64,000 nucleotides of DNA from Blasia pusilla (taxonomy: Eukaryota), in the NCBI GenBank assembly GCA_050084515.1, contig CM114271.1:25110001-25174000 (forward strand), read 5' to 3'. Under the pieces are notes generated by a model. That model was not told where the DNA came from, ran no database searches, and worked only from the letters and a program-made list of their open reading frames with translations. Positions 3,040-56,310 of this stretch are shown piece after piece. Made by a program: the position numbers and the translations under genes. The first letter of the stretch is position 1, and every line of letters starts with the position of its first letter.

Positions 3040-3269
3040 TCATTTAAACATATGAGTCGTTCTTTATGACTCATCTTTACTAGGCGAGTGAAACAAGTCT
3101 GACTCGTAGTGACTAGTGGGTATTGAAAACTTCTTTAGTCATAAGGAGATGACTCAATGAGTTGTACGACCCTAAATTTTATGACTAAACCATTTAAGTA
3201 CTAATTTGAGTCATTCTTTTGGTGAGTCATTTAAAGTCTAGTCATAAAAACCACCCATTTCTTCTAGTG
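3040..3269 (+). mobile_element. Right terminus of a CACTA (En/Spm) transposon
   Basis: Ends TTTCTTCTAGTG (reverse complement CACTAGAAGAAA) after clustered GACTCA/TGAGTC subterminal motifs. The same terminus occurs at 41019. It truncates the repeat that continues further left at 8368. Confidence 0.7.
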
Positions 3270-4490
3270 TATACTGCCGAGGAAGGTGGTGGGACTCGAG
3301 ATAGGTTACATGGGACCGTTATGGTGTACCTAGGGGGGGGCCAAGGCTCTCGAATTCGCCCAACATTTTCGATCCCTGTCTACAATCGGCCAGAGGAGCC
3401 ACTTGAATCCCAAGACATTCCTTTGGTACTGTCACCGAGGAGAGTTAGGAGTAAATTTGTAGATAACGAGGCTGAAGAAATCATAGACTAGGTGAAATGT
3501 ATATTTCCGAGGTTCCTTCGGAGGTAATAAAAATGAGATTTTTTCAACCCATAATGGTTTGTAAAAGTTTGCTGGAATATGTTTTTGGACTTGTGGATTG
3601 TGTTCTTTTAGCTACTCAGAATTACAATTCTGCAACCCGTATGATTCCGACGGGTTGCAACTTTTGCTTTATTCGCAACTTTTTAACATTTCAGGCAACC
3701 TGTCGGATTCGGCAGTTGATCGCTTGAGTGATCGGACTCTATCCTGTGAGACCAACCGACGCATTGTGGCGGGCTTCTTGACTTTTGCCGTTCCCTTCAT
3801 TCGTCCAACCAGTTCTAGGCTTGTTTTCTTGTCTAAGATGTGCAGGATTCCTACTACCTGTCGGATTGCCATTTCGGATTCCCAACCCGTTAGATCGTCG
3901 TGGGTTCAGGGTGGAAGAAAATCACTTCTAAAAATCTTTTCCTTTCTTATGGTGAGCTTTCTTACTGGTTGGGAGGGGTGCAGCTTCTCAGTTTCTCAGC
4001 CTTAGGATCTGATTTGTTCACATTTCAGAAAGTTGGTCTTGAGCAGACACCATTCATAACCGACAGAAAGTTGGTTATGGGGCAATTTAGGGGAGGCCAT
4101 GATGCAAGCAACAATCCTTGCAAAAAGAGAGGTTCCCATCCGGGTGGTCCTCCAACAAAAATACCAAGGGCACTGCTTTTTGTTGACAGAGACAGGGAAT
4201 GTTAAGAAACTTAGGCTCACATGGAGAGTGATGGAAAAATGTTTAGGGTGGTCTTATGATAACTCATTTTTTCTCGCCCCCAGGAAAGAGGAGGTTTTTT
4301 TAGGGCCAAATGTGGACCACTAAATACTCTCTTCTAAAGATTTCCTGAATTTTAAAGCAAAAAAAATTTTCAAATATGTCAAAAAGTTTTGAAGAGAGGA
4401 GGCGGATTTGGCCTTTTTTTTTAAGAGAGACTCTCCTCTCTTCCTCTCTTCCTCTCCTCTCTTACTCTCTCTTGTCAGAATACCAGCCCC
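3270..4490 (+). mobile_element. Terminal segment of the Mutator-like element: last codons of the ParB-MTase gene, 3' region and putative TIR
   Basis: Direct repeat of 8368-9597. Encodes PTFSIPVYNRPEEPL...EAEEIID*, the C-terminus of the minus-strand gene at ~10468-10600. Ends CTCTCTTCCTCTCTTCCTCTCCTCT...GAATACCAGCCCC. Confidence 0.6.
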
Positions 4491-4774
4491 CCACGGGTTG
4501 CTTTGGGGAAAAAACCTTCTAAACCTGCAGTCACTCGAGCAACTCGTCGGAGTCCGACGGGTTGCATTCTTAAAAGAACACCCTCACAAGGCGGCCTATC
4601 GAGCAACCCGTCGGACTCCGACAGTTTGCTTACCAGGCATTAGCAAATCTGAATGCAATCCGTCGGACTCCGACGGGTTGCATCATTAAGCTCGTTGCTA
4701 GAATCCGACCTTGAGCTGTGACGACCCGTCAGAGTCCGACGGGTTGCAAAAACCCATGTAATTTCCTGACGAGT

Positions 4775-8299: not shown

Positions 8300-9597
8300 A
8301 ATGGTATTACCAGGGGACGGAGCAGATATTGATCTTTGGATGGGTGTCACATTGAGAGCGTACAAGGTATACTGCCGAGGAAGGCGGTGGGACTCGAGAC
8401 AGGTTACATGGGACCGTTATGGTGTACCTAGGGGGGGCCAAGGCTCTCAAATTCGCCCAACATTTTCGATCCCCGTCTACAATCGGCCAGAGGAGCCACT
8501 TGAATCCCATGACATTCCTTTGGTACTATCACCGAGGAGAGTTAGGAGTAAATTTGTAGATGACGAGGCTGAAGAAATCATAGACTAGGTGAAATGTACA
8601 TTTCCGAGGTTCCTTTGGAGGTAATAAAGGACGATATTTTTTCAACCCATAATGGTGTTTGTAAAGTCTTGCTGGAATATGTTTTTGGACTTGTGGATTG
8701 TGTTCTTTTAGCTACTCAGAATTACAATTCTGCAACCCGTAGATTCCGACTTTTTACTTTTTGCCCAGTGCAACTTTTTAACCATTTCCAGGCAACCTGT
8801 CGGATTCCGACAGGTTGAGTGCTTGAGTGATCCAACTCTATCCCGGTGAGACCAACTTCTGACGCATTGTGGCGGGCTTCTTGACTTTTGGCTCGTTCCC
8901 CTTCATTCGTCCAACCAGTTGTAGGCTTCTTTTCTTGTCTAAGATGTGCAGGATTCCTACTACCTGTCGGATTGCCATTTCGGATTCCCAACCCTTTAGA
9001 TCGTCGTGGGTGCAGGGTGGAAGAAAATCACTTCTGAAAATATTTCCTTTCTTATGGTGAGCTTTCTTACGGGTTGGGAGGGGTGCAGCTTCTCGGTTTC
9101 TCAGCATAAGGATCTGATTTGTTCATATTTCAGAAAGTTGGTCTTGAGCAGACACCATTCTTAACCGACATAAAGTTGGTTATGGGGCAATTCAGGGGAG
9201 GCCATGATGCAGGCAACAATCCCTGCAAAAAGAGAGGTACCCATCCGGGTGGTCCTCCAACAAAAATACCAAGGGCACTGCTTTTTGTTGACTGAGACAC
9301 GCAATGTGAAGAAACTTAGGCTCACATGGATAGTGATGGAAAAATGTTTGTAGTGGTCTTATGATGTCTACTTGTTTTTCGCCCCCTGGAAAAAGGAGGT
9401 GTCTTTAGGCCCGAATGTGGACCACTACCTACTCTCTTCTAAAGATTTCATGAATTTGAAAGTAAACAAAAATTTCAAATATGTCAAAAAGTTTTGAAGA
9501 GAGGAGGCGGATTTGGCCCTTTTTTTTGAAGAGAGACTCTCCTCTCTTCCTCTCTTCCTCTCCTCTCTTACTCTCTCCTGCCAGAATACCAGCGCCC
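8300..9597 (+). mobile_element. Second terminal segment of the Mutator-like element
   Basis: 8368-9597 repeats 3270-4490. Ends with the same CT-rich block and GAATACCAGCGCCC. Confidence 0.6.
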
Positions 9598-15484: not shown

Positions 15485-15894
15485 GGTGCACGTTGGGTCA
15501 GTTCTTCCTCCTCGACAGTCTAATCTGCTCATGTGCAGGATATATCCCTCAAAGCATTTCGTGATGAAGCGCCGTGATCCTAAACCCAACTCTGTTAGCG
15601 TTTCGTGATGAAGCGCCGTGACCCTCCAGCCGATGGGCTTGCCGAAATCAAACCCTAGAAGCCTCGGGTGCTGGATCGTCTGTAACCTTCCAACGAAGGG
15701 ATGAATGTAACCAAGTTTGGCAGCGGAAAGGTAACGTTAACAGCTGCGAGGAAGAGCACATGAAATCGTGAAATGAAAAACAGAAATGAGCAAAATCTTA
15801 GCCTTTTATACTTTTTGAGCCATTGAGCTGACCATTGGGTCGTTGGGTTGTACCGACGGTGATGTGTCGGCCGTTATGGAACTTTGCACGTGGG

Positions 15895-16162
15895 AACCCA
15901 AGCAACCCGTCGGTCTCCAACGGGTGACATGCTTCCCTCATCTTGGGGATGCAAGGCGAGGTACCCAGGCAACATGTCGGAGACCGACGGATTGCACTCT
16001 TCCCTTGTCGTTGGGGTAACAAAGCGAGGTACCCAGGAAACCCGTCGGAGACCGACGGGTTGCACGCTTCCCTCATCTTGGGGTAACAAGGTGAGGTACC
16101 CGGGCAACCCCTCGGAGACCGACGGGTTGCACACTTCCCTCGTCCTCGGGTAACAAGGCGAC
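15895..16162. repeat. ~68-bp tandem repeat x4, each unit holding one palindrome, in the divergent intergenic region
   Basis: Units start ACCCA/GG at ~15895, 15963, 16031 and 16098, each with CAACCCGTCGGAGACCGACGGGTTGCA-like cores and GGGGTAACAAGG.GAGGT tails. Confidence 0.85.
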
Positions 16163-21280: not shown

Positions 21281-24200
21281 TAAAATGAGGTCTTAGATTG
21301 TACTTTCATTTGCCAGAACCTTCACTTTGAGCTTGAACTCTATGCAGCCCAAGGCAAATGACAAATTTTTTCCAGACCTTGGTTGGAAAAAGTGATTTGT
21401 TCCACATTTATGATTCCACTGATTTTTCAATTTTTAAAATTTTGTGCAAATTGCAACCCGTCGGATTTAGATGGGTTGCCAAAATGTGGAAGATGAAAAA
21501 AAAATCTGTCGGAGTGCCTAAGCACTGAGAACAACAGTGCAAAAAAATTCACAAAAAAGTTTTGAGTACTCTCTTAAAAAAAAGTATCTCTTTGGGTTAA
21601 AGGTAGTTTCCTCTCTCCTCTCTCCTCTCTTCTCTCTTCCTCTCTTCCTCTCCTCTAAGCGCTCCTTCGGCGCGACGTAGCAGGAAGCGCGGTGCGAAAG
21701 AGGACGACGTGAGGCTAGACCAGACGGAAGCGACTCTGAGGGCCCAACCCGCCGGATGCAGCGTCTCAGCAATGGCGGCAGGGTTGGCGGCATCCTGGGG
21801 ACCAGTGTGGCAAGGGTTCAGGCTAGTGCGGCAGCAACGTAGACGCGGCATTCAAGCAGCGTAAGTTCGGCGGTAGTCGCGGTCGGCGGAGGCTCGGCGG
21901 CTGTGTAGAGGCGGCTCGTCCACGGGCCCCCCTTTCCCCCAAATTTGTTTTTTCCACTAAAATGACCCCTTGAAAACCCGGATTTCTCTATTTTTTCCTC
22001 TTACTTGATTGCCCCCCTCTTTACAGATTACAAATAGCATGCTTTACCACAAATCCCTCCTAAGATTGAGGGTCAACACCCCCCAAAGATAACTTTTCAC
22101 TCAACTTCTTCCTCAAAGGACATGTGCCCTTGTTCTATTCACTAAGTTAACAATGATTTTTATTTTTCTACCTATCAACAAGGATTTTTACCCAAGGATT
22201 TTGGAAAGTTCACTCACACCTTAGAACGGTGGCTATGGCAGCCCAATAAAACTTGTCCTAACTTGGCGCTCACCTACTCAAATTGTGCATTGGTTCTTCC
22301 ACAACGTGCACAACTTCCCGATCTACGACGGTGTTAAATCAATTTCTTCATTTGATCTCCCAACAAAAATTGGCAGGGACTGTCGTGCAGCCCATCGTCT
22401 CTTTCTCCTACGCAAAATTTGGCAGTGCTTCTTTGGTGATTTCTTCCAACACCAACTTCAACCTGTAAAATACAGAAGCCATAAAGCTACACACTGCTCC
22501 CAAGAGCACCGGCATGGGTAATTTTCCCCCACACTCAAATTCTACCAAAATTTGGGCAGCACTTCCATGCGTCCCTCTCTCGTACGAAAAAAGTCAAAGG
22601 AAAATATCAAACTGACTGACTCTTGCTCCCAAGAGCACTCCCATGAGTCATGAAGCAAGGAACACGGTCCCTAACCTGCAAACACAACAAAAATGTAGCA
22701 AGTTCCCGCATTGTAGCTCTCATTCTCTCTTGTAAAGTACGCTCGGATCTCTCTCAACACCATCTCACACCATAGCTCTCAAAGGTGTGCACTCTCTCTC
22801 ATGTCAAACCAAACCCACTCTCCTTATAAGAGCCTTGGATTACACTCACAAGGCAAGGGACCATAGCTCCGCCGTCTCATGCCATGAGGTTCAACAAAGA
22901 GAGAATGAGCTCTGTCATGACCATACGGATTATGTCGTAGAGTATAGTGTGCTAGTAGAGGCCATACCTTATGTAGAGCCGTAGTGTCTAGATAGAGATG
23001 CAGTTTCATACATAGGGTTTGGGGTGACTAAGTTGAGGGTGACTTTTCCAGTAGAGCCCGCTCTTAGGTTGGAGGATATAGTGTGGAGTGCACTCAAAGA
23101 ATATTTAGTTCTTTGAGTTGAGCCTGTTGCGTTGGGAGTTAGCCTTGGTAGTGAGTAGAGCTCTTGGCTATGGTGGTTCTCGCAAGCTTCGACTTGGATT
23201 ATCCCATCGTGGAGTGGGTTTGGCTCGATTGTATGTGATTCTATACGTGTTTTATGACAGTAGAAATTTCACGGATTTCACTCAAAGAACTAGAGTAGAT
23301 CGATGGTAACTTCGATTGTGGATCAGTAGGATCTGGTTAGGGCTTATTGTGTACTCAACCGTGGATTTTCATGGCTTGTGGCCTATTTTGGAGGTAGGAA
23401 TCTGATGCATGGTTGGTTGGGAAAGAAGTGCCTTGTTGAGAGCTTTCCAACGTGCTTTAGATGCCAGATTCCGTCAAGGGAGTTGGAAGTTATCAAGGAT
23501 TGAAGATTATGGTTCGTGTTTGACGGTTTTCTGATGTGGAGAGCTTGGAGTGCGGAAGCTCTGTTGAAGTTCATCAAGATCGGGTGAGACGTTCCTATTG
23601 CTACTTATATTGTGATCTCATGTGAAGCTATCTGCTTGAGTGTGTGGAGCATTGCGGATTTCTGCGTGTATGAATCTGGGCGGAAGCACTGTCGGATTTG
23701 TGATTCTGGAGGTGTATGGACATTAAGTTTGCCTGATTTTTAGCTCAGAGTACAGAGCTTGATTGTAGCTTTTTTTTTGTGGAGAGATAGCTATGGTGAT
23801 ATATTGAATTCTGGTTTAAATAGATTCAATTTTGGTTGGGGATTTGTGGAGTAATTGCTGATCGAAATTTTGAAGAGTAGCTCAAGGACTAGCTATGGTG
23901 GACAGCAGATCGGAGGGGCTGGTTGGTTGGTGATTCGTCCGTTGTTGGAGAGGCCTATCCCATTGGGGGCGCCCTGGTTGGGCCTCTCTCCATAGCAAAG
24001 CATGGCAAAGCGTGGCAAATGGGGCATGTCTCGAGCATTTCTCGGCGTTCCGAGGCTTCGAGGCAACTCGTGGTAGCTCGGGGCGAGTGGGCGTGAGAGG
24101 CGGAGTAAGGAGCAAGGAGCAAGCAAGCAAGCTTGCTTGCTTGGTTGGGCGTGAGGCAGTTTTTGCAGGATTTGTGATTTTAGTGTTGCATAACTGGTCA

Positions 24201-24916
24201 TCCATCTTTGGGCTATTCTGCCTGGAAGACATTTAACTGCTGAGTTCTTAACTATGCCAGTGTACATATTGGTGTAGCTCATTTGGTGTTGTTCGGAGAG
24301 GTGTTAGGCGGTTTATGCATCTCAATTTTTTGGTTGATGGACCTCTAGCACATAGTATGGTGTAGCCTCTCCATGCAGGTGATATTTTCAAGTGCTGCGA
24401 GTCCGACTAGCACGTCATCGACCCGCGGCGGAGTAGCTATTGCGTTAGAATTGTGTGGTGGAATCTGTGGATTCAGGGGGCGCCATGTTTGGTGGATTAT
24501 GTTACCTTGATTTCCATTTGTGATTGGAGGGTTGTCGTTGGACTTTCTGTGTTTGGATCCCCTCCATCGTTGCTTCTTGCTTGCGCGCCCATTGTTAGGG
24601 TTGACGCTGATTTCGAGTAGTGTTATACGTGTGCTGCTCTTTTGGTAGTGAGGCTGGAGTGATGACTAGTAGACCGTGGGAGGCTTCTTGTGGTGATGAC
24701 AGGTTAGGTTGCCTACACCCATAGCTAGTAGAGCTAGAATAGTACAACGACATCGACGTCACTTGGTTACTTAGTGGTGGTAATTTGGTGGTGGTGCGGC
24801 ATCGGCGTTGGTCATCACGGAACTGTCTCGTGGTCTGGTTGGGGATCGTGGTGCGGATAATGGTGGTTTTACATGGAGTGGATTGAGGTATCGGCTACCT
24901 CTTCCACTTCCGACAG

Positions 24917-26568
24917 TTGAATGAGGCCATGAAGGGCCCACGACGATACTCGTGTGCAGTGGGCACCATTGAGTTGGAGGACTTCATACAGGAGTTTGAT
25001 ACGTGGTGTGATATGCAGATGTTGCGGAACGCCACGTTGTTTACACCCTTCTTGGCTTGGAAGGGGTTGTTTCAGCACTTGGAGGGACCACCCATGGATG
25101 ATTACCATGAGTTCAGGAAGGACCATGTTGTTGAGATAGAGGCGTGGAAACAATATTGGTCTCCAGACTATGTGTCTATCACCCATGGTGGTATTGGTAG
25201 TAGTGCTCCTACTATGCCAGCCAGCCCGACGTTGAGTGGTACGAGTACGAGCCGGAGTGGGGGTACCAGTGGAGGTGCCCATGGAGGTACCAATGGGGGT
25301 ACTAGTGGAGGTACTAGTGCCCCACCATCGTTCAACCCGGTTGCAGAGTTCTTCAAGAGGTTGAAAAAGAATTATCAGGGAGTGAAGACAGAGAAGTTGA
25401 GGAGTCTCCAGGAATTTGAGCGAAAGACTGGTGAGAGTCTTCGTGAGGCATACACTCATATGCGACGCTTGATTTCAATTACCCAGGGTGTGGCGAGGCT
25501 CGAGCAGCACCGGTTTTGGTATGGAATCTTGGATAGAGAGTTGCGCCCCAGGGTACGTTATGCTACTCTTATGAGTGATGATTCACCCACATTGACCCAT
25601 GTGTTTGCTCTATCTGAGAAGATTGAGCTTAACATGGTGGAGGAGAGAGTGGTGACATCCGCATTTAGTAGGGATACAACTACTACTTCTCGTGTTCAGC
25701 AGTCCACCTCACAGTCTTGTAGTAGTGGTGTTGGTAGTAGTAGTGGGAGTCGTGGGGGGTACATACGACCTCAGTCAGGTCCTAGAGGGACACTTGCGCA
25801 GAGACCATTACCTTCATTTTGCCTTGCATGACAGGGCGATCATGTTGGACATGTGGAGGTGATCATGTTAGGAGGTTTTGTCCCCAAGAGGATGGGAGAC
25901 GGACTTTGGAGGATGGGCCTCAATCGGCCCCAACTCAGTGTGATCATTGCGGGAGACCAGATCATCCTCGAGAGCGTTGCTTTGATCTTCATCCAGAGTT
26001 GAGATCAGGCCGCGGCCGTGTTGGAGTAGCTCCGAGAGGCCAAGGTGGTAGGGGTGGTAGAAATGGACCAGTGGTTGGAGAGCCTACGGTGGCTACCCCT
26101 ACCACTACGACAGAGTTAGCGATGGCTGCCAGGATTGAGCAGTTGGGGCAAAAGTTGGCTACTATGGCTCGTATCCAGCATAGAGCAGGTTCGGGAGCAA
26201 GGGCTTCCACCTCTTATGGAGGGGATGATTTCTCTTATATGGCGAGTGCAGCACAGGTTGAGGCATCAACTGTAATTACAAGAGGAGCCACTCGAGCATC
26301 AGAGCCATGTGGTGCTACTGTGGAGTTGGACCCACAGAGGGGTGAGGCTGGGAGGCAGGCTAGCCTTCCCCAGTCATTCTTGTTGTCTGAGGTGCTTAGG
26401 ACTCCATCCATGGTTCCTACACAGCCTATTGAGTCGGTGATGGGGGCCGAGGCATCTACATCATGTGTAGTAGACACGGATCGACATCAATGTAGTATTG
26501 CGGATGGCAACTTCAGTGTTGGGATCCCCATTGTTTTCGGCCACGGAGCTGATGGCTTTAGGAGTTGA
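24917..26568 (+). pseudogene. gag: Gag-like protein with two CCHC zinc knuckles (frameshifted)
   Basis: ORFs 24917-25831 and 25819-26568. Motifs CWTCGGDHVRRFC and CDHCGRPDHPRERC. Confidence 0.85.
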
Positions 26569-26739
26569 CTTAGGTCCTGTATTTCAGCTAGCAGCCACAT
26601 TGTGTGAACGTGGGGGTGTTACTGCTACACATTCTGAGGTGGATGAGGTGTTGCGGTGGAGCGACCCTCTATGTCAGGTGTAGCATTGAGTACCAGTGCT
26701 ACTTGGTCAGGCAACAGCGGCAAAGATGGATGCATTACC

Positions 26740-27200
26740 AACCCGGCCAGCCATTGATCGTGAGAGGCTTACACCTGGTGTATGTATGTTGGACAACCGG
26801 AGTGGGATATTTTGATTGGTGAGTCCTACATGACAGGTGTATAGACGAGATATAGTCTTGTTAGACTCTGGTGCCCAACCTTTGATGTTGGGAAAGGCGA
26901 CATGTATTGGTTTGGGTATTCGGAGGTCAGAGCTTGAGCCTTGCCCATTCTAGATTCAAACATCACTTGGAGGAGCCAATGATAGGTCTCAATTCATGAC
27001 ATGGGAGAAGTTGTCTATACATTTTAGACCAAATCATGCGACTGATAGCTCCCGATTGGGAGTACCTGCAGTGGTCACATCAGTCGAGTCATATGATGTA
27101 CTAGTTGGAGGAGCAGTATTGTACTCGATGGGTTTTCAGATGGACTATTGGACTAAGACAGCATCTTATAGACTTGGTTGGCAGTCCGAGGGATGGACGT
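26740..27200 (+). pseudogene. Retroviral-type aspartic protease domain
   Basis: VLLDSGAQPLMLG at ~26855-26895 and downstream YDVLVGG. Confidence 0.85.
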
Positions 27201-27585
27201 ATGAGCCAGGTTCCTCTGAGATCTATTTATGGGGCTCGACCAGGAGGGTCTTCCCCACCGGTGTTAGCATCTGTGGCTGGTTTTAGTGGAGTAGTCACTT
27301 GGCCAAGACTTTTTGGAGGGTAATCTTTCTGCTATGGATTCTCTTGTGCATGAGGAGGTAGAGGAGGTCCCTAGTTTTGCAGTAGTGGCATCCTCATTGT
27401 TGGATGTGCCACTTTGGAATTCAGGCGGTGCACTACGGCAAGAGGCTGATCGCCTAGTGCAGGAGGCTTGGTGTGAGACTGTTATACCTCACAAGGAAGA
27501 GGAGGCCCCATAGCGGACTCCTACTTCTGGTCCAGTTGGGTTATCCCCTTTGGATACTACACCCATTGTATGGCAGTATCTGCCG

Positions 27586-28530
27586 GAGGGCATTTGTGTG
27601 TTAGATCTCTTTGGTGGGATTAGCACTGGTTTGGATGTAGTGTTGCAGACCGGTATTCCTGTGCGGAGATACGTGTATGTGGAGCGAGATGAGACGGCCC
27701 AGAGAGTCTCATCCCAACATATCGGTCAGTTGATGTGGAGATATCCTGAGTTGTCTCCGCCATCAGCTATTCGTGGGTACCAGCGTGCTTTGCCGTTACA
27801 CATTGCATTGTTGGGGGCGTAAGACCTTAAGAGGGTTGGTCCTGTGAATTTGGTGATTGCTAGATGGCCATGTCAAGGTCATACACGTGCTGGTCGTGGT
27901 GAGGGATTACACGACCCTAGGTCTCGATTATTTTGGGAGATGTTACGAGTGTTACGACATCTTCAAGTTCATCAGGCACGTGCTCTAGCTTACATTCTAG
28001 AGAATGTTCCATTGTTGGGTGACACTCGGACCCGGATGATAGCGAGTGTTCATGAGGTGCGGTCTTGGATTGGACCAGCGGTGTTGTTGGATGCTGCGCA
28101 AGTTGGCTCGTGTGCACATCGTCCACGCTTGTGGTGGACAAACTTGTTTCCTAGGGAGGTTCTATGTCGAGCATATGATGCAGTGCAGCGGGATCCTTGC
28201 CTTACAGTGGATAGTATCTTGGATATTGGGCGACTTTCTCAAGTGGTGAGGGTTATTGATCGGTCATCCATGGCAGTGGTGAATCGTGTGGGCCAGCCTA
28301 GGATGGCACTACCCACATTTTTGAGTTTTCCCTCGTCACATGCCTACAGGGAAGGTGGTCGTGGGCTTCTATGGGATTCTCATGTGCAACAGTTGGTGGA
28401 GCCTAACGCTGATGAGAGAGAGAGCGTGCGATGAGATTTGCTACTGGTGTGACATCGGTTGGTTCCATTTTGAGGCTTCACGACGTCATGTGTTGGGTCA
28501 GGCCATGGACCTGAATTGTTTGACTTGGAT
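27586..28530 (+). pseudogene. C5-cytosine DNA methyltransferase domain (DNMT3-like) within pol, between protease and RT
   Basis: Motifs in canonical order: I VLDLFGGISTG, II YVYVERD, IV LVIARWPCQG (27865), VI ILENV (28000), VIII AHRPRLWWTNL, IX EPNADERE, X RRHVLGQAMD. Confidence 0.9.
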
Positions 28531-28849
28531 TTTGAGTCTTGGGATGGCCGAGCAGCGTCGACTTTGGACTATGTCTATGGGTCTTCCACCCCTTGTGATG
28601 AGCTTGATGGCTACCGGGACGGTAGAGACATCGCCTGCGGGCGAGGAGAATAGTATTTTGCATCATTGGAGTAAATGGGATGTAATGGTTGGGCATGTGG
28701 AGTTGGTTGCTCATGCTGGTGGAGGAGTTATTTGCTCAGATGATGGTGTAGCTAAGGGTGTACCATCTTGTGGAGGGGTTGCCTAGCAGCCAATGGGGTG
28801 CCATTACTTGGGCCCAAGCTTAGGGGAGGTGAGAAACGACGCTTGACAC

Positions 28850-31200
28850 AATTCCTATGTGCTTATAGGAGTTGTTTTGCCTTTAGCATGAAGGAGTTGG
28901 GTGTTTTGGTTGGACCCGATATACGGATTGATTTGGCTAGTGATTCGATATAGTGATATGGAAAGGAACCTCATTTAGAGTAGGACGTTGGACCTTTTGG
29001 AGGCTGGATTAGTGGAGTTGTTGCATGGAGTATGCATCAGCCACTGTCATGCCTGCTAAAAAGGATGTGCATGGCAACTACACGGATAGGCGGATGTGTG
29101 GAGATTACCATCCTATCAATCGGCATACCAAGGCCGATAGGTATGCCATGCCTACACCTGAGGAGATCTTTGATGTGGTGGGATAGGCAAAGATTTTTAG
29201 TACTTTGGATCTTCGGGCAGGATACCATCAATTTCCGATTTGAGAGAGTGACAAGGCCAAGACAACATTTTGGGGTGTCAACTCTCATGGCAAGGATTGT
29301 TTGTACCATTGGAAATTCTTACCCTTTGGGTTGAAGAATGCACCTGCCGAGTTTTAGAGAGTGATTGACAGGATCCTAGCAGGATTGGATTTTGTTTGGT
29401 GTTACATTGATGATATCTTGGTGTTCAGTAACACGGTGGAGGAGCATCAGATACATTTGCAGATGGTGTTTGAGCGGTTGAAAGCTCATGGTCTACTTTT
29501 GCATCCAGGAAAGTGTAAGTTCTTCCATGAGGATGTTGAGTACCTGGATCATGTGTCGTGCCCCTACTCTCCTTGAACGTCAATCTTTGGTGTTGCGGAA
29601 GCGTGCGTTCAGTAGGTCACGAACTCATCGCCGATCTGCACCCAAACACGCACTCTCGTTAGTCGGGTTTGGCCAACCGGCGTTCCAACCCACCGAGTCC
29701 TCAACTCGGCATCTCATCAAGCTCAACCTTCCTTAGTTCCCAGCTCCCAACACATGGCAAGTCCTTTAAGACTTGGAACAGACTTCCTGGTTAGTCCAGG
29801 GATCTGAAACGGCACTTACACACCTAGCAATCCCAACTGTTCAACGGTCCTCGTGTGAGTTCCGAACCGAGACCCAAGTAATTGAGTCGCGGCGTGAAAT
29901 CCAAGAGGGATGTCTAAAATCGCCTCAATGGACTTGGTGCAGGTTTTCCAACCCAACGCCCAAACTCGCGTTCCGTTCCATGCCCTTGAGCCGCCCCGCG
30001 GCGCCCAAAGTGGGGTTTGGGTTCCAAGCACTCTCGAAGACCTTCCCCCTTACTAGTACTTATGGGGTTCTCCAATAACCCCTCCCCTTTGGGAAAAGAG
30101 GTTCGGTCCCTTCATTTTGGCCCTCAACCCGACTCCACTTACAGTCGTTTTGGGTCGTATCTCGGCCGCTGCTTATGCGTTTGCAGCGATCTTTGGTGCG
30201 TTTGAACCAGCTCTTTATAAGCTTTCCAACGCACTCTTATTTGCTCCAAACGCATCTTGGAGCTAAAAGTTATGGCCATAAATACAGTCGGAAACTCTCA
30301 AACGCAAGTGGCGTTCCAAGTCCGGATCTTTCCTTTGGCAACCCACTTCCTAGACTCGACTTTTTTCAAGTCTCATTCCGCGTTTGGTCCAGGTTTCAGT
30401 CGCGACCATCACATCTGAAATGCGACTTCTCGCTCGCGTCTCATCTCTTGTCTCCTCTTTGAGACAACTCCAACGCGCAAACCATCTTAGCGTGAGCCCG
30501 CTAATGTTCCGATGTTCCGCTTGGCACTTGTTTGGTCATGAGGGTCGCGACATCATGTGATCTATCCAGGTGGTTTGGGAGTTCAGCAAGCAAAGGTGGA
30601 GGCTATTGCACTTATTCCTCATCCGGTAGATGTGAGTAGAGTTCGGGCATTCATGGGATTGGCGACTACTATCGGAGGTATGTGAAGGGATTTAGTGCTA
30701 TGGCAAAGCATTTGAACCAATTGTTGAAATCAGATCAGGAGTGGCACTGGGGAGATCATCAGGAGAGAGCTTTTGTGGAGCTCAAGGCCCAGTTGGTAGA
30801 GGCGCCTATCTTGAGGAGACCTATCAGAGGGCGCCCATTTCAGTTACACACTGATTGGAGTAGGTTGGGACTTGGAGCAGTGTTGACACAAGATGATGAT
30901 GAACACATGGAGTTTGTGGTGGCCTATGCAAGTCGTTCGAATAATGCAGCGGAGTTGCGCTACAGTTCATATGAGGGAGAGTGCTTGGCAGTAGTGTGGG
31001 ATGTGGCACACTTTAGGTGTTACTTGTTTGGCACACAGTTTACCCTTGTTACTTATCACCAGCCGTTCAAGTGGTTGATGGAGTCTGACAAGCTTATAGG
31101 GAAGCTTGCACAGTGGGCTCTTATCTTACAGGAGTATGACTTCCAGGTGGTACATAGACCTAGAGTTGCCAACCTTGATGCTGATGGGTTGAGTAGAAAC
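28850..31200 (+). pseudogene. pol: Gypsy reverse transcriptase and RNase H, interrupted by a solo LTR
   Basis: RMCGDY, FSTLDLRAGYHQ, PFGLKNAP, CYIDDILVFS (~29400), LHTDWSRLGLGAVL, YSSYEGECLAVVW. Confidence 0.92.
29554..30552. mobile_element. Solo LTR (999 bp) of a third family
   Basis: TGTCGTG...CGCGACA with 5-bp TSD TCATG. RT sequence rejoins across it (compare 57380-57410). Confidence 0.88.
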
Positions 31201-31419
31201 CCATATACTAACCAAGAGGATGCAACTGGGGCTAGATGGCATGGCGAGGTTGATGAGGAGATGGTCCCACGTTGGCATGCATCAATGCATCCTTTTTATG
31301 CTGGTTAGGGGTGGATTCTAGTATAGAGGACCACATGACATCTTACTCTAGTCAGAGGGTAGATGGCCAGCCTTTAGATCCTAAGGTTGGAGATGGTGGT
31401 ACGCATCAGCGTGATATTC

Positions 31420-33475
31420 ATGATGATGCGTTGGTGTTGGAGTTCCTATGGACCAGTAGGGCGCCAGGCATAGTGAGTGCCAAGGAGCGAGACCGTGCTC
31501 TTCAACGTGCTAAGAGGTATCGATTGGAGGGAACACATATTCTCCGTGTGTGGGAGGATGGTAGAGTACGAGTAGTGCCACATTTGGCTCATAGAGAGCG
31601 CACTCATAGAGGCGTTGATTGATGATCGGACCACATCTCGAGATCATCTAGAGGCGGATGGTTTGGTTGAGCGTGTGGTTTAGACAGTGAAGAGGGCATT
31701 GCGCAAGTATGGCCTACAGAAGGGGCAGCTTGGAGATTGGGATATTCAGCTGTCATGGTTAGCCATGGGGTATAGGTTCAGCCGCCAAGCATCCTTGGCT
31801 TCCTTCTCACCTTATTTTCTGTTATACGGCCGAGATCCAGACTTGCCCGCATAAATTTTTCGGGAGTCTAGTGAGGTGGTGAACCTTGATGACCCAGAGA
31901 TGTGGATGAGAGTGTGTTCTCGGCGGGCAGAGCTCTTTCGGAGGGTTATGCCAACAGCCTTTGAGAATCTTGCCATTGCTCAACACAGGGATACGTTGCG
32001 GTATGCAACCATTCTGGGTGAAGGTTATCAACCATCTATTTGTAGGTTCCATGTGGGTGTCGTGCGCCTACTCTCCTTGAACGTTAATCTTGTTTGTTGC
32101 GGAAGCGTGCGTTCAATAGGTCACGCTCTCAACGCTGATCTACATCCAATCACGCACTTTGGTTAGTCGGGTCTTGTATCAATCATCGGGATTACTTTTC
32201 GAGTTCTCGTCTCGGACTCTCGTCAAGCTCAACCTTCCTAGTTTTGCGGTTTACAACACGGGAAAATCTCGAAGGACTTGGGACAGACTTTCTGGTCGGT
32301 TCAGGAACCTGAAACGGCGTTTTGCGCCTAGCGGTTCCAATTGTCCGATGGACATCCAATGAGTTCCTCACCAAGACTCACAAGAAGTGAATCTCGGGTT
32401 GGAATACAAGTGTGGGGTACAAAGTCCTCTCCCTTGGATCAGGTTTGGGTTTTGAGTTCCAACGCCAAACTCCCGTTCCATCCCGTGCCTCTGAAATGCC
32501 GTTTGGCGCCCAAAGTGAGGATTCGTGTTCCGAGATATCTTGGAGAGACTCCTCCCTTACTAGTACTTCTGGGGATCTCCGGGGGCCCCCTACATTTAGG
32601 GAAAGACACCCGGGCCTCTCCAATTGGCCCTCAACCTGATTGCTCTCTCAATCGTTTTTGGCCAATATCTCAGCCTGTACTTATGCGTTTTCTAAGATAT
32701 TTAGTGCGTTGGAAGCATCTCAAGATTAGCTTTCCAACCCGCCCTTATTTGTCCCAAATGCATCTTGGAGCTCAACGTTATGGTCCTAAACACAGTTAGA
32801 TTCTCCCAAACACTAGTCGTGTTCCAAACTGGTTCTCACCTCTTTGGAAACTAACCTCCCAAGACTCAACTCATCTCAAGTCTTGGCTCGCGTTTGGTCT
32901 AGGTTTCCTGGTCGCGACCACTAACGCATGAAATGCACAACTCTGTTCTGTGTTTCATCTCTTAAACTTTTCCAAGAGACTTTTCCAAACGCCTCTCCAA
33001 AGCGCTAACCTCGCAGCGTGAGTTCACTTGAGTTCTGATGTTTCACTTGACGCCTATTTGGTGTTGTTTGGTTATGAGGGTCGCGACAATGGGGGACTAT
33101 GTCTATTTGCAGCAGATTGCACCGAAAATGTTGGATGTGACGGTAGGCCGCACTATTTTACGAGTGCGCGAGGTGTTAGTTTCTGGAGTTCTCATGTTGG
33201 AGGGTCGTGATGGACTTATTTGGAAGGACCATGTACGTAATTGTGCGCCATGTCATCTTCCAGATGTGGATGGTACTGTTGACCCAAGCTTAGCCATGAT
33301 ACGTGCTAGCTTGAGGTGCATGTTGTGTGGATCTACTAGTAACGCAACCCGTATGTTGGTGTGTGATCGGTGTTCTAGAGGTTGGCACATGATGTGTTTG
33401 ACTCCACATATGGATGTTGTTCCTACTAGAAGGTGGGTTTGTCCTCGATGTACTCAGGAGAGGCAGTTGACTTGA
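31420..33475 (+). pseudogene. Integrase (internal deletion of ~430 bp at ~31605, solo LTR insertion) with C-terminal PHD finger
   Basis: ADGLVERVV, FSPYFLLYGR. PHD CMLCGS...MLVCDRCSRGWHMMCLTP...WVCPRC. The HHCC motif and first catalytic Asp are missing relative to 58430-58860. Confidence 0.85.
32058..33088. mobile_element. Solo LTR (1031 bp), diverged relative of 29554-30552
   Basis: TGTCGTG...GAGGGTCGCGACA with TSD GTGGG/ATGGG. Integrase sequence FHVGDY rejoins across it. Confidence 0.85.
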
Positions 33476-34542
33476 TCTTTGCATGATATGGATTACAAAT
33501 GGGCGACTAACGATGGGGCAACCTAGCACCCGGCCTTCTGATTCGTGCACCCAAGAAGGTGTATAGCATGTAGTAGATGTATAGGGCTACCTCGGAGTTA
33601 GAGGGACCTAACCACTAGTTAGGGGGGCGAGTTGTGGTACACTTGTATTTGTGGATGTTCTCGTCTATGTTATGTATGTATGTGAGTATGGTATGTCAAC
33701 GATGTATGTTGTATGACGATGTGGATTTGCACGACAGATGTCATGACCATATGGATTATGTGGTAGAGTATATTGTGCTAGTAGAGGCCATACCTTATGT
33801 AGAGCCTTAGTGTCTAGGTAGAGATGCACTTTCATACATAGGGTTGGGGGTTACTCAGTTGAGCGTGACTTTTCCAGTAGGGCCCGCTCTTAGGTTGGAG
33901 GATATAGTGTGGAGTGCACTCAAAGAACAGTTAGTTCTTTGAGTTGAGCCTGTTGCGTTGAAAGTTAGCCTTGGTAGTGAGTAGAGCTCTTGGCTATGGT
34001 GGTTCCTGCAAGCTTTGACCTGGATTCTCTCATCGTGGAGTGGGTTTGGCTCGATTGTATGTGATTCTATACGTGGTTTATAACAATAGGTCTTTAAGTT
34101 GTGGTACACTTATGTTTGTGGATGCTCTCGTCTATGTTATGTATGTATGTGAGTATGGTAGGTCAGCAATGTATGTTGTATGACGATGTGGATTCGCACG
34201 ACAGCTCTCAAGCTCTCTCTCTCTTGGAAGTATACCCCCTTCCCTCTCCCAAGCCCTCTCAACGGTAACCTATGCTCGTAGGTCACCTCCTTGGCTTTGG
34301 ACTTGTTGTAGCGGGTCAAGGCCCACTTCCCAAAGTGGAAAGTCAACTATCCCTAACATGGAAACTTGCCCAAAATAGTAATTTTCTTTGTATGGCTCCA
34401 AATGAGCCGAAACGAAGGGAAAACCTACTCTCTCAGGTTTTGCAGGGCCTCAACAGGTCATCCTCGACCTGTTGGGCATGTCCTCCACAACTTGAGAAGA
34501 CGCTCTGCTAGATCCCACTGATCTATCCTAATAGTCATGATA

Positions 34543-37500
34543 GAGGAGCCAGAACTTGGACTAGAGGAGATGTCGTATGGAGAGTATGCATCTGCCATGC
34601 ATGCCAAGAAGAATATGCATGACAACTGGATAGATAGGCGGATGTGTGGAGACTACCGACCTATCAATCTGCAAACAAAGTCAGATAGGTATGCTATGCC
34701 CACTCCCTAAGGAGATCTTTGATGCTATTGGGCATGCAAAGATAGCTTGTTCGTTGGATCTTCGACCCGGATACCATCAGCTACCTGTCAGATTGGAGGA
34801 TAGGCATTTTGGGACATCGATCCTCACACAAAGGATTGTTTGTACCATTGGAATTTTTTACCATTTGGGTAAAAGAATGTTGTGATTGAGTTTCAGAGGG
34901 TCATGGATAGGATCTTGGTAGGTCTGGATTTTGCTAGGTGTTATATTGATGACATCGTAGTCTTTAACACCAGGGTTGAGGGGCATGAGCAACATATAGA
35001 GGAGATGTTTCGACGATTGCAATTACATGGGCTGAAGCTACATCCAAGCAAGTGCAAGTTCTTCTACGATGAGATTGAGTACTTGGATCACACAATATAC
35101 CCATGTGGCCTTGGTGTGCAGTAGACGAAGGTAGAGGCTATTTCATGCATTCACGCCCTATAGATATGAGTTGAGTTCGTGCATTCATGGGATTGGCGAA
35201 CTTCTATCGAAGGTACGTCAAGGGTTTCAGTTTGATTGTAAAGTTGCTAACCTTGTTGATCAAGATGGATCACGAGTGGCATTGGGGGGAAGAGTAGGAG
35301 AGAGCATTTTAGCTGCTCAAGGACAGGTTGGCATCCACACCCATATTGAGGAGACCAATCAAAGGACATCCTTTCCAATTGCATACAGATTTGAGCATGT
35401 TGGGGCTTGGAGTGGTGCTCACCTAGCATGACAATGAGGGTAGGAGGTTAGTGGTGGCTTACGCTAGTCGCTCGAAGAACGCTGTAGAGGCAAAGTAAAG
35501 CTCGTATGAGGATGAGTGCTTGGCTACAGTATGGAGTCTCGCGCATTTCAAGTGTTACTTATTCTGTAATCTCTTTACCACCATTACTGATCATCAGCCA
35601 CTTAATTAGTTCATCGAGTCCGACAATCTTACATGAAAGCTTGCGAGGTGGGATATGTTGTTGTAGGAGTATGATTTTCAGGTGGTGCATAGACCTCGGA
35701 CGCTTAACCATGATGCAGATGGTCTGAGCCTTAACCCATACCCGAGTCAGCGAGATGCAACTAGAGCTCGGTAGCATGGAGAGAGTGATGAGGAGATGGT
35801 GTCGGGATGGCACGTGTAAGCCTATTTGGGCTTGTTGGCTATGGAGCGTCAGAGTGTTGAGACTTTGATGGCGAGGTCTGATAGAGAGTCCTTAGATCCA
35901 GAGGCCGGTGAGGAGGCGATAGGTGGCCGAGATATTCACAAGGATGAAGTCGTCTTGGAGAACCTGCATACTGGTAGTGTCGCGAGCACAATGGGTGCTA
36001 AAGAGCGGGATCGGATCCTACAGCGAGCCACACGTTTCGGATAGGAGGGGACACATGCGTTGCAAGTTTGGGAGGATGGTAGAGTACATATAGTGACTCA
36101 TCCTTCACAAAGTGCACATTTTGTGTGGCATGTTGATGAGGAGTTGGATCATTTTGGAATGAAGTGGACTTATAGCTTACTCCAGATACAATATTAGCGG
36201 CGAGGCACGTAGATTGACGTTCAGCAGTTTGTTGCTAGGTGCATGGTGTGTGATCAAGTATGGGCATCGTTCAAGGTTTCAAATCCACAGTTCCATCCAC
36301 TTCCAATCATGGATTGAGGTTATAGATGGAGTTTGTATTTTGCAAGGCCTTTACCTTTGACGGAGCGTCATAGTCGTTATGTGTTGGTGATCGTCAAACA
36401 CTTCTTGAAGTAGATAGAGTTGGTTGCATTGCCTAACAAAGCGAGCAAGAGAGTAGCATATGCCTTCTTAGATAGGGTGCTGAGTCATTTTGGCGCACCA
36501 GCTAAGGTGTTGACAGACCAGGGTATGGAGTTTTGTTGGGAGTTTCATGCCTTGTGTGATTAGGCGTTAATCGACCATCGGACCACTTCGCAAGATTATC
36601 TTGAGGTGGATGGACTAGCGAAGAGGGTTGTGCAGTTGATGAAGAGAGATTTACATAAGTATGGCTTGTAGAGAGATCACCTAGGAGATTGGGACCTCTA
36701 GTTTCCGTGGTTGGCAATGGGAAACAGATTCAGTAGGCATGCATCCTTAGCGTCTTTGTCACCATATTTTTTGGTTTATGGCCGAGAGCTTGATTTACCT
36801 ACGGCCATTTTTTGAGATGTTGGTGAGCTGTTAAATCTTGATGACCCTGATATATGTATGGATACAAGCATGTTCTAAGAGGGCTGAGTTTTTTTGGAGA
36901 GTGATGCCCATAGCGTTTGAGAACTTGGCGATTGCGCAACCTTGGGGTACGTTAAGATATGCGACTATTCGGGGAGGTGGTTACCGACATACTATTCAGA
37001 GATTCCATCAGGGAGACTATGTCTACTTTGAGACGGCACCCGCGATGTTGGATGTGACTGTAGAGCGCACTATCTTTAGATGCGTGAGATTTTGCCATCT
37101 AGTGTTCTCTTATTGGAGGGACGTGATGGTATGGTTTGGAAGGACCATGTGCATAACTATGTGCAATTTTATCTTCCTAACATTGATGATATAATGAATC
37201 CTAGATTAGAAATAGTTCTTGTAGGCTTGCAATGTATGTTGTGTGGTTCTGCCCATGGTACAGCCATTATGCTGGTCAGTGATGGATGTTCGAGAGGATG
37301 GCATATGGCATGTCTGACGCCACCTCTCAGTAGGGTACTTTCCTTGGGGACGATGGGTGTGCCCCAAATGTACACAGAGTAGGTAGTGATAGATTTTGAC
37401 TTGTATGTATGACATGGATGATAAGAAGGCGACTAACGATGGGGTCACATGAGCTACCTAGCCTTTTACTCTTAGTGTCCTAGAGAAGTATGTCATGGTA

Positions 37501-38130
37501 GGTAGGGTTAGATGGCTATTTGGAGTTAGAAGGACCTTAGCACCATCTAGGGGATTATTGGAGATATTTTGGCACTTCTCGTCTAGTTGTGTGGACTCCA
37601 TGAGTTAGCATGGGACCGTTTGTGTTTATATGTGCATTCGATGATATCGATGTATGTTATGTAGCTATGTGTATGCGCACGATAATTATCACGTATTTTA
37701 GGATATATCGATGAGATCTAGCAGAGCGCCTTTGGAGATATTGGAAGACACCCTGAGGAGGTCGTGGATGACCTACTGAGGGCACGTGTAACTTGAGAGA
37801 ACAAATTTCTCCTTCGTTTCGGCTTATTTGAAACCATATTGAGGAACTTACTATTTTGGCTAAGTTTCTATTTTTGTATAGTTGACTTTATAATTTGGGA
37901 AGTGGCCCTTCATCCACTACATCATGTCAAGAGCCAAGGAGGTGACCTAAGAGCATAGGTTACCGTGGAGAGAGCTTGGGAGAGTGCAGGGGATATACCT
38001 CAAAGAGAGAGATCTTGAGAGCCCATTCTCTCTTTGTTGAACCTCTTGGCAAGACGCGGCGGAGCTATGGTCCTTCTTGCCTTGTGTGTGTAACCTGAGC
38101 CTCTCATTAGGAGAGTAGGTTTGGTTTGAC

Positions 38131-38168
<38 letters not shown>

Positions 38169-38430
38169 CACAAAGAGAGAATGAGGTGAGGTGATTGAGA
38201 GGGCTATTATGGAGGAGGTTGCTAGTTTCTTGTTGTTGTGTAGGTTGGGTACCGTGTTCCCCGTTCAACGACTCTTGGGAGTGCTCATCGGAGCAAGAGC
38301 TGCTTGTTTATGTGTTATGTTTTGCAGATCTTTCGTGTGGAAGAGTGGCGCGCAGAAGCGCTGCCCAATTTTCATTAGAAATTGAGTATGGGGGCGGATT
38401 GCTCCATGCCAGTTCTCTCGGGAGCGCACC
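34543..38430 (+). mobile_element. Degenerate family-B Gypsy copy: RT-RNaseH-IN-PHD, then full B-NN-A LTR, PBS and start of a further leader
   Basis: CYIDDIVVF (~34940), PHD at ~37230-37375, PPT at ~37549, B 37558-37684, spacer AT, A from 37687, PBS-like ACAAAGAGAGAAT at 38170-38182. Many stops. Confidence 0.85.
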
Positions 38431-50697: not shown

Positions 50698-50865
50698 TCT
50701 GTGTCATGACCATACGGATTATGTCGTAGAGTATGGTGTGCTAGTAGAGGCCATTCCTTATGTAGGACCGTAGTGGCTTGGTAGAGATGCGGTTCCATAC
50801 ATAGGGTTGGGGGTTACTCACTTGGGGGTGACTTTCCCAGTAGGGCCCGCTCTTAGGTTGGAGGA

Positions 50866-51080
50866 TATAAGGTGGCTTGCCCTCAAAGAAACGATCAGTT
50901 CTTTGAGTTGAGCTGTTGCGTTGGGAGTTAGCCTTGGTAGTGAGTAGAGCTCTTGGCTATGGTGTTTCCCGCAAGCTTCGACCTAGATTCTCCCATCGTG
51001 GAGTGGGTTTGGCTCGATTTTATGTGATTGTAAACGTATTTTATGACATTAGGTCTTTCACGGATTTCACTCAAAGAACT
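50866..51080 (+). promoter_or_regulatory. TATA box, predicted transcription start and complementary self-priming PBS of family A
   Basis: TATAA at 50866. AGTTCTTTGAGT at 50897-50908 is the exact reverse complement of ACTCAAAGAACT at 51069-51080. Same arrangement at 23107-23118 and 23280-23291. Confidence 0.7.
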
Positions 51081-54000: not shown

Positions 54001-55384
54001 TGGTATCCGGCATAGATCGGGTTTGGGAACAAGGGCTTCCACCTCTTATGGAGGGATGATCTCTCTTATATGGCGAAAGACGAGGTTGAGGCATCAGCTG
54101 CGATTATGAGAGGAGCCACTCGGCGTTAGAGCCACGTGGTGCTCTTGTGGAGTTGGACCCCAGAGGGATGAGGGGGAGGCGAGGCTAGGCTTCCCAGTCA
54201 TTCTTGTTGTGTGAGGTGCTTAGGACTCCATCCATGGTTCCTCGCAGCCTATTTAGCCGCAGTGGGGACCGAGGCATCTACATCGCGTGTAGTAGACACG
54301 GATGCGACATCAATGCGATGTGCGGATGGCAACCGGTGTTAGGATCCCCATTGTTTTTGGCCACGGAGGCGATGGCTTTAGGAGTTGACTTAGCTCTGTA
54401 TTTGATCAGCGACCACGTTGTGTGAGCGTGGGGTATTCTTGCTGCTACGTGTTGAGGTGGATGAGGGTGTTGCGGTGGAGCGACCCTCTATATCGGGAGT
54501 AGCATTGAGTACCGGTGCTATTTGGCGGCGGCGGCGAAGATGGATGCATTACCGGCCCGCGCCGACCATTGATCGTGAGAGGCTTACACCTGGTGTATGT
54601 ATGTTGGACAACCGGGTGGGATCTTCCGATTGGTGAGTCCTATAGGGCAGTGTATATACCGAGATAGAGTCTTGTTAGACTCGGTGCCCAACCTTTGATG
54701 TTGGGAAAGCGGCATGTATTGGTTTGGGTATTCGGAGGTCGAGCTTGAGCCTTGCCCATTCGATTCAAACATCACTTGGAGGAGCCAATGATAGGTCTCA
54801 ATTCATGACACGGGAGAAGTTTTTATGCAGTTGAGACAGATCATGCGATCGATAGCCCGGTTGGGAGTATCTGCGGTAGTCACATCGGCCGTAAAGTCGT
54901 ATGATGTACTAGTTGGAGGAGCGATTGTACCCGATGGGTTTTGGATGGATTCTTGGGTGAGACAGCGACTTACAGACCTGGTTGGCGGTCCGGGATGGGC
55001 GTATGAGCCAAGTTCTGTGAGATTTATTTCTTGGGCTCGACCGGGGGGTCATCCCCAACAGTGTTAGCATCGTGGCTGGTTTTAGTGGAGTAGTCACTTG
55101 GCTTGGAGACTTTTGGAGGGTAATGTTTTACGCTATGGATTCTCTGCATGAGGAGGTAGAGGAGGTCCCTATTTTTGCAGCAAAGTGGCATCCTCATCGT
55201 TGGATGTGCCACTTTGGAGTTAGCGGTGCACTACGGCGGGAGGCGTCGCCTAGTGCGAGGAGGCTTGGTGTGAGGTGTTATACCTCACGAGGAAGAGGAG
55301 GCCCCACGGCGGACTCCTACTTCAGTCGATTAGGTTATCCCCTTTGGATACTACACCCCTTGTATGGCAAATTATCCGCCGGAG

Positions 55385-56310
55385 GGCATTTGTGTGTTAG
55401 ATCTCTTTGGTGGGATTAGCTTGGTTTGGTTTGGCTGCAATGTTGCGGGCCGGTATTCTGTCTTGCGGAGATACGTGTATGTGGGGCGAGATGAGCGGCC
55501 CGAGAGAGTCTCATCCCGACATATTGGTCGATTGATGCGGAGATATCCTGAGTTGTTGTCGCCATCGGCTATTCGTGGGGTACCAACGTGCTTTACCATC
55601 ACACATTGCATTGTTGGCGCAGGATCTTGAGAGGGTTGGTCTGTGGATTTGGTGATTCTTTGGATGGCCATGTCGAAGTCATACACGTCTTTGGTCGTGG
55701 TGAGGATTACATGACCCTAGGTCTCGATTGTTTTGGGAGATATTACGGGTGTTACAACATCTTGAGTTCATCAAGCACGTGCTCTAGCTAACATTGGAGA
55801 ATGTTCCATTGTTAGGTGACACTCGGACCGGATGATGGCGAGTGTTCATGAGGTGCGGTCTTGGATTGGACCAGCGGTGTTGTTGGATGGCTTGAGTTGG
55901 CTCGCGTGCACATAAATCCACGCTTGTGGTGGACAAACTTGTTGCCTAGGGAGGTTCTACGTCGAGCATATGATGCAGTGCAGCGGGATCCTCGCCTCAC
56001 AGTGGATAGTATCTTGGATATTGGGCGACTTTCTCAAGTGGTGAGGGTTATTGATCGGTCACCCATGGCGGTGGTGAACCGTGTGGGCCGACCTAGGATG
56101 GCACTACCCACATTTGTGAGTTTTCCCGTCACATGCTACGGGGAAGGTGGTCCGGGGCTTGTATGGGATTCTCATGTCGGCGGTTGGTGGAGCCTAACGC
56201 TGATGAGAGAGAGCGTGCGATGGGATTTGCTCTTGGTGTGTGGCGGTTGCTTCTATTTTAGGCTTCGAGGCTTCATGTGAGTCAGGCCATGGACCTGAAT
56301 TGTTTGACTT
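55385..56310 (+). pseudogene. DNMT3-like C5 methyltransferase domain, family A copy 2
   Basis: GICVLDLFGGIS, GWPC (~55662), ENV (55797), PRLWWTNLLP, QAMDL. Confidence 0.88.

Follow-up and report, generated by a model that had tools for sequence, protein, structure and literature searches.

The retrotransposon Tf1 of Schizosaccharomyces pombe primes reverse transcription without a tRNA, with a primer binding site (PBS) directly after its 5' long terminal repeat (LTR) whose complement is found in the first 11-13 nt of its own transcript, and experimental demonstration of self-priming comes mainly from this element. Primer-derived sequence is also said to be retained at the end of Tf1 cDNA. A 64,000-nt stretch of the genome of the liverwort Blasia pusilla (assembly GCA_050084515.1, contig CM114271.1, positions 25,110,001 to 25,174,000 of the forward strand; hereafter the window) contains copies of two Ty3/gypsy retrotransposon families, A and B, for which a Tf1-like mode of self-priming had been proposed in a preliminary description of the window. 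The in silico evidence assembled here, drawn from the window and from relatives associated with mosses, indicates that this mode of priming is probably the correct one.

Amongst the plants, self-priming has been predicted for 12% of the elements in one survey and, in the accessible passages, only for the Tcn1 and TAR lineages (Neumann et al. 2019, PMC6317226); for a Selaginella Tcn1 element, passages of a separate report give evidence for neither tRNA priming nor self-priming (PMC2864245). The Tcn1 chromoviruses of mosses and club mosses and the TAR elements of the Ty1/copia resemble families A and B, so far as those passages go, in having a self-primer predicted in silico from a PBS matching the LTR, but unlike the lineage described here they possess ordinary LTRs and neither a DNA methyltransferase (DNMT) nor a PHD finger. 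As self-priming has already been predicted in other plant lineages, the window adds one more instance of a mechanism that is already known. It would extend the prediction in plants from two lineages to a third, unrelated-looking one, with a DNMT, a PHD finger and no chromodomain detected either in the window or amongst close homologues, and the comparative support, which includes several covarying families and a putative DNA fossil of a copied primer, would be better than is usual.

The repeat structure of the Gypsy-DNMT3 of Klebsormidium nitens is given as that of a DIRS retrotransposon in the legend to Fig. 4c of de Mendoza et al. (2018; PMC5890265), the main text of which contains 'primer binding' 0 times, and streptophyte Gypsy-DNMT3 elements are only named in the accessible part of a 2026 preprint (10.64898/2026.05.21.726589). 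The Klebsormidium element (KnitGypsy-Dnmt3) shares with families A and B a gypsy pol with a DNMT3-type domain and DIRS-like repeats, whereas the host here is a liverwort, and neither a primer nor the junction rule nor the pair of insertion forms described below appears in the main text of PMC5890265. A literature search of titles, abstracts and some passages returned no account of self-priming or of the junction rule in this lineage, and within main texts and passages no published explanation was found for the DIRS-like layout of the Klebsormidium relatives.

A covarying complementary pair at the repeat edge

Two + strand copies of family A are present in the window, A1 (22913-34203) and A2 (50702-60426), and are ~88% alike. 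Each begins with a repeat (L), and the alignments of the 5' and 3' copies of L end at 23279 in A1 and 51068 in A2, such that the first base beyond the repeat is the first base of a 12-nt motif, M2 (ACTCAAAGAACT). As had been claimed in the preliminary description, M2 is exactly complementary (12/12 in both A1 and A2) to a motif within L, M1 (AGTTCTTTGAGT), which in both copies begins 30 nt downstream of a TATA motif (TATAG in A1). On the + strand M2 occurs only after the two 5' repeats, while M1 occurs in the same two repeats and at 33933-33944 and 60149-60160; these six sites compare with 0.02 expected in the window, a count reached in 0 of 100 shuffles. A near-copy of M2, termed M0, lies just 5' of M1, and the two therefore form a local hairpin, or palindrome, that is shared by families A, A' and B and absent from the moss family C. 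The preliminary description had also noted the lack of a TGG-type PBS after the LTR, and this extends beyond A1, where no TGG occurs until 25 nt past the repeat end, to all families, none of which has a post-repeat sequence that starts with TGG or contains a TGG within 20 nt.

A distinct 13-nt pair occurs in family B, with ATTCTCTCTTTGT or its complement found at five sites in the window against 0.00 expected. The copy near 63 kb (B#3) had been placed on the minus strand, and a tblastx comparison with A1 bears this out; on its sense strand M1 starts 29 nt past a TATAT and has an M0-like partner just upstream.

The position of the pair was further explored in 80 loci from moss-associated metagenome contigs, retrieved with an alignment of eight homologues. 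Sixteen 5'-type L copies were available, two from the window and 14 from the loci (L039 and L045 were omitted as repeats of L040 and L044), and in each the best ungapped complement of the 14 nt following L was located relative to the last upstream TATA. The best complement fell 27-32 nt past the TATA in 12 of the 16, a placement expected by chance at a level of a few percent per family, given a repeat of ~300 nt with 1-4 TATA-like motifs. Across families A, A' and C the 5' and 3' L cease to match from the first base of M2 onward (A1, A2, L012, L037, L040, L044, L045, L054, L058 and L074), and in every family the first base of M1 is an A preceded by a pyrimidine.

The covariation previously noted between two families holds across more of them: five different M1/M2 pairs were found (A, A', B, C and C'; Table 1), with mutually complementary sequences and compensatory double changes. 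Left to itself, RNAalifold closes the R-U5 regions of each of the two alignable groups, run separately, with an M1:M2 helix, and reports compensatory changes at columns 4/160 and 10/154 amongst the eight family-C sequences and at columns 10/185 amongst the five A-like sequences. Based on the partition function, the pairing probability of nt 2-10 is ~0.95-1.0 in eight of 11 RNAs (A1, A2, B1, L011, L061, L047, L074 and L021). A scan of duplex energies between the post-repeat 16-mer and L was uninformative because the moss sequences are AT-rich, with control 16-mers performing equally well or better.

Proposed self-priming and the explanations that compete with it

Under the Tf1-like scheme, transcription would start ~30 nt past the TATA, at the first base of M1, and the first 12-13 nt of the RNA would fold back on M2 directly after the 5' repeat. 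RNase H would then cut after M1 and the freed 3' end would prime minus-strand DNA, with no tRNA involved, as in Tf1. M0 may mask the internal M1 of the 3' repeat, leaving only the 5'-terminal M1 free. The position of M2 at the repeat edge, the spacing from the TATA, the predicted helix and the structure of one relative, L077, all support this scheme in silico.

Within L077 an inverted copy of L (3699-3878; 94% identity) begins immediately where the 3' L (3361-3698) stops; it spans nt 1 of L to the last base of M1 and ends ..GTCATGACA, after which the flank is AT-rich. The U5 is thus joined without interruption to an inverted repeat whose far end is an integrase-type CA, and no other case of an inverted L adjoining a forward L occurs amongst the loci or in the window. 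The structure is read as the fossil of a copied primer, which could have arisen by either of two routes: a primer RNA carrying U3-M0-M1, with its 3' end at the end of M1, may have been copied during synthesis of the plus strand, or the strong-stop DNA of that strand may have ended in M2 and snapped back onto M1. By either route M2 would act as the PBS and pair with M1.

The elements resemble Tf1 and sushi in having a post-LTR PBS complementary to the start of their own RNA, and the primer retention reported for Tf1 has a parallel in L077. They differ in possessing a PHD finger and not a chromodomain, a DNMT in pol, a 4-bp target duplication, an M0-M1 hairpin (with its proposed masking role) in three families and permuted repeats. 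The likeness in priming denotes a mechanistic class and implies no phylogenetic grouping with Tf1/sushi.

Several observations weigh against self-priming, or against its generality. The best complement lies elsewhere in four of the 16 repeats (L004, L009, L012 and L049), although M1 is visibly mutated or deleted in the first three of these. Predicted pairing is weaker in B3 (0.47) and B0 (~0.2), and drops after nt 9 in L054. The copies in the window are full of stop codons, so nothing there is active. Family B was described as having the same geometry as family A, and here only the pair itself stands: the repeat in B#1 (37687-38425), the only B copy of the repeat to follow an internal region, remains similar to the two 5' copies for ~240 nt beyond M2 and diverges near 38420, so that family B would support the M1:M2 pairing but not the position of a PBS at the repeat edge. 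Further, it is the covariation argument alone that excludes an internal tRNA fragment as the primer, and a conserved 5'-terminal helix could serve a structural role instead.

This last point is the basis of the main rival explanation, in which M1:M2 is a conserved long-range RNA helix closing R-U5, with a function in packaging, dimerisation or strand transfer, while another primer acts at or near M2. The helix is indeed predicted and covarying, which demonstrates pairing and not priming, and in family C it extends 3 bp into U5. However, in three families the edge of the repeat coincides exactly with M2, marking the start of minus-strand DNA; no other candidate PBS follows, including any TGG within the 20 nt noted above; and the fusion in L077 of U5 to the reverse complement of M1 and its upstream sequence is what would result from a priming 3' end on M1 itself or from plus-strand strong-stop DNA terminating in M2. 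As a structural helix leaves both the repeat end and L077 unexplained, it is considered unlikely, and Tf1-like self-priming is preferred.

There is little to recommend a primer supplied by the host, either a tRNA, a tRNA half or another small RNA bound by M2 with a secondary match to M1: passages of PMC6317226 attribute half-tRNA priming to certain plant copia lineages, and no tRNA genes to set against M2 were detected in the window or in 41 loci, but M2 is wholly different amongst A, B and C yet always matches its own M1, no M2 has a TGG start, and Rfam returned no match in 22800-23700 at E up to 1. It is similarly improbable that a protein (integrase, methyltransferase or host factor) recognises M1/M2 as an inverted DNA repeat, or that the pair arose incidentally as the repeats evolved and has no role in priming. 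Inverted repeats are common in LTRs and M0-M1 is itself a local palindrome, but the positions here are fixed at TATA+30 and the repeat edge, and complementarity that is conserved while the sequence differs between families argues for base pairing rather than a protein site.

Element lineage, permuted repeats and two insertion forms

Due to their Pfam content and their homologues, which include a K. nitens protein, families A and B are assigned to an integrase-type Ty3/gypsy lineage of liverworts and mosses of the Gypsy-DNMT3 kind, of which they are degenerate copies with relatives in KnitGypsy-Dnmt3; the lineage carries a DNMT and a C-terminal PHD finger. The open frames of A1 and A2 are interrupted by numerous stops. 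As in the Gypsy-DNMT3 lineage, the DNMT domain (PF00145) is within pol, upstream of the reverse transcriptase (RT) and RNase H, and the PHD finger (PF00628) occupies the C-terminal position of the integrase in place of a chromodomain; the homologues likewise possess PF00628 and not PF00385. Matches to the integrase in the open frames of A2 are below threshold (H2C2, E 0.011; rve, E 0.07), and full-length homologues have the DDE integrase domains PF00665 and PF17921. With the RNase H frame as the query, 110 longer proteins were recovered, the best from the liverworts Calypogeia fissa (70% identity), Riccia and Marchantia, and amongst them was the K. nitens protein P0037 (DNMT, RT, RNase H and rve; E 6e-45).

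The family-A copies follow the order L, M2, internal region, polypurine tract (PPT), X, NN, L and X'. The block X starts right after the G-run of the PPT (AGGGGGGCG) and ends in CACGACA, two variable nucleotides (NN) separate it from the TGTCATG that opens the 3' L, and the right end of the element is the CACGACA of a second copy of the block, X'. At the joint between the 3' L and X', the base before M2, at the end defined by the primer, is fused to the base after the PPT, at the end defined by the polypurine tract, and M2 can therefore be used to fix the end of U5, as the preliminary description had argued. Layout and junction rules are the same in the moss loci. The NN takes the forms GA, AC, AT, GC, GT, AA and CT, with a first base that is mostly a purine, and at the sites in the window (33737-33738, 59953-59954 and 37685-37686) and the X|L junctions of the loci the flanking motifs are conserved despite this variation.

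This order corresponds to the split direct repeats of PAT and Ngaro elements (A1-internal-B1-A2-B2), and membership of DIRS/Ngaro was considered and rejected. DIRS-order elements use a tyrosine recombinase and are not known to make a target duplication, whereas the elements here have a DDE integrase (in the homologues), TG..CA ends and 4-bp duplications; no match to the tyrosine recombinase PF00589 was found in the 38 open frames scanned.

The loci contain 39 first X blocks (in 38 loci), with a G-run of at least GGGGG scored directly before X at 37. In 22 of the 39 the first X is followed by L and X', a DIRS-like arrangement (A-internal-B-A-B), though some of these are the same locus assembled twice; in ten it passes directly into unrelated sequence (nine with a scored G-run and L063 without; L047 and L048 have the same sequence), five reach the contig end, one has the L and inverted L of L077, and the remaining one (L008) probably represents an X' for which the X block proper went undetected. 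A second form, L-internal-X without a 3' L or X', is represented by B#3, L009, L047/L048 and the 3' ends of L005, L021, L023, L030, L051, L063 and L064. Perfect 4-bp duplications flank this short form in L009 (TACA/TACA), L047 (AATT/AATT) and B#3 (TGAG/TGAG), with none in L021, and L-internal-X is a complete insertion. Amongst eight copies of the long form that were checked, the duplication matches at 4/4 positions in A1, L040, L058 and L074 and at 3/4 in A2, L012, L037 and L054. The insertion sites bear out these element ends: A1 lies within a B repeat between duplicated GCTC, with GAGCTCTCAAG read across the insertion site in intact B copies, and the A2 site is bridged from 50698 to 60429 by contigs of an uninterrupted relative, which gives TCTG/TCCG.

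If M2 and the G-run PPT are taken to be the ends defined by RT, the L|X' joint reads as those ends fused. In the simplest reading, end-joining is followed by cleavage at an internal palindrome: the start of X would be set by the PPT and the end of U5 by the self-primer, these RT-made ends would not be the integrating ends, and integrase would cut a palindrome resembling a circle junction (..CACGACA NN TGTCATG..) within circular or concatemeric DNA. Replication through such joined-end DNA is put forward tentatively, as a possibility somewhat short of even. No linear scheme of reverse transcription could be derived that gives X' without end-joining or an extra template switch. X precedes the 5'-type L in none of the 16 copies, and the lack of any mirror form (L-X-L-internal-X) speaks against a two-repeat circle being cut at random. 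If correct, joined-end replication would explain both L-I-X-L-X' and L-I-X, each with its 4-bp duplication, and would provide a mechanistic link between integrase-type elements and the DIRS/Ngaro elements with their split repeats. The self-priming site would provide a fixed reference point for how an integrase-bearing element acquires DIRS-like split repeats, turning a puzzle into a testable model.

Features of the window

The coordinates of the elements and the sequences of the pairs are collected in Table 1.

Table 1. Retrotransposon features in the window and M1/M2 pairs by family
Feature	Position	Strand	Details and evidence
A1 left target duplication	22909-22912		GCTC
A1 5' repeat L	22913-23279	+	367 nt, starts TGTCATG; self-BLAST, alignments
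TATA-like motif	23077-23081	+	TATAG, 30 nt upstream of M1
M0	23092-23102	+	near-copy of M2 directly 5' of M1; sequence
A1 M1	23107-23118	+	AGTTCTTTGAGT, proposed first 12 nt of transcript and self-primer; exact complement of M2
A1 M2	23280-23291	+	ACTCAAAGAACT, proposed PBS, starts at first base after L
C5 DNA methylase (PF00145)	27823-28434		Pfam E 3.6e-07
RVT_1	29358-29573		Pfam E 1.1e-13
RT-RNase H	30640-31308		Pfam E 1.4e-32
PHD finger (PF00628)	33032-33475		Pfam E 1.8e-10
A1 G-run PPT	33621-33629	+	AGGGGGGCG
A1 block X	33630-33736	+	ends CACGACA, then 2 variable nt (GA), then 3' L
A1 3' repeat L	33739-34096	+	~10 nt lost at its end
A1 block X'	34097-34203	+	second copy of X, right end (..CACGACA)
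A1 right target duplication	34204-34207		GCTC
A2 target duplication	50698-50701 / 60427-60430		TCTG / TCCG
A2 5' repeat L	50702-51068	+	M1 at 50897-50908
A2 M2	51069-51080	+	ACTCAAAGAACT
A2 right end	59837-60426	+	PPT 59837-59845, X 59846-59952, AC, 3' L 59955-60319, X' 60320-60426
B#0 repeat	22906-22722	-	third family-B repeat, split by A1 insertion
B#0 M1; M2	22906-22894; 22733-22722	-	M2 with 1-nt deletion
B#1 repeat	37687-38182	+	after internal region; M1 38025-38037, M2 38170-38182
B#3	63459-44060	-	A2 nested in its gag; form L-internal-X without 3' L; flanks TGAG/TGAG; tblastx map, end sequences
B#3 M1; M2; TATAT	63121-63109; 62960-62948; 63150-63146	-	
Pair of family A			M1 AGTTCTTTGAGT; M2 ACTCAAAGAACT
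Pair of A' (L044, 3' L)			M1 AGTTCTTCGAAT; M2 ATTCGAAGAACT; two compensatory double changes vs A
Pair of family B			M1 ATTCTCTCTTTGT; M2 ACAAAGAGAGAAT
Pair of family C (moss)			M1 TAGTTTTTCTAGA; M2 TCTAGAAAAACTA
Pair of C' (L047)			as C, one C:G to T:A (M1 C to T, M2 G to A)

B#1 (34536-38425) is cut off at the RT (34557), next to an inverted B#0 repeat on the minus strand that starts at 34542. It reads internal-X-L-M2-leader, as in a tandem or concatemer, and the X-L-M2-leader order of its right side, which would also be that of a circle, ends near 38420 in AT-rich sequence; neither the rest of the leader after 38425 nor a family-B 3' L-X' joint was found in the window. A further element of the lineage is represented by a lone DNMT-coding fragment on the minus strand (43899-42938), which starts ~160 nt past where B#3 ends on the right.

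Most of the difference in length between A1 and A2 is accounted for by two ~1-kb copies of an unrelated repeat in A1 (29555-30553 and 32057-33089; ~73% alike and in the same orientation) that are absent from A2. Contigs in two runs from one sample (X12 and X18) connect 52852 with 59307 through 25 other letters, which points to a family-A derivative with an internal deletion at another place in the genome.

Beyond these elements, the window contains a short-period tandem array (336-545), a 351-bp tandem repeat in three copies (1835-2905), a ~67-bp tandem repeat (15893-16161) and a pair of 1.2-kb direct repeats 5.1 kb apart (3269-4491 and 8367-9597), which is probably another LTR element.

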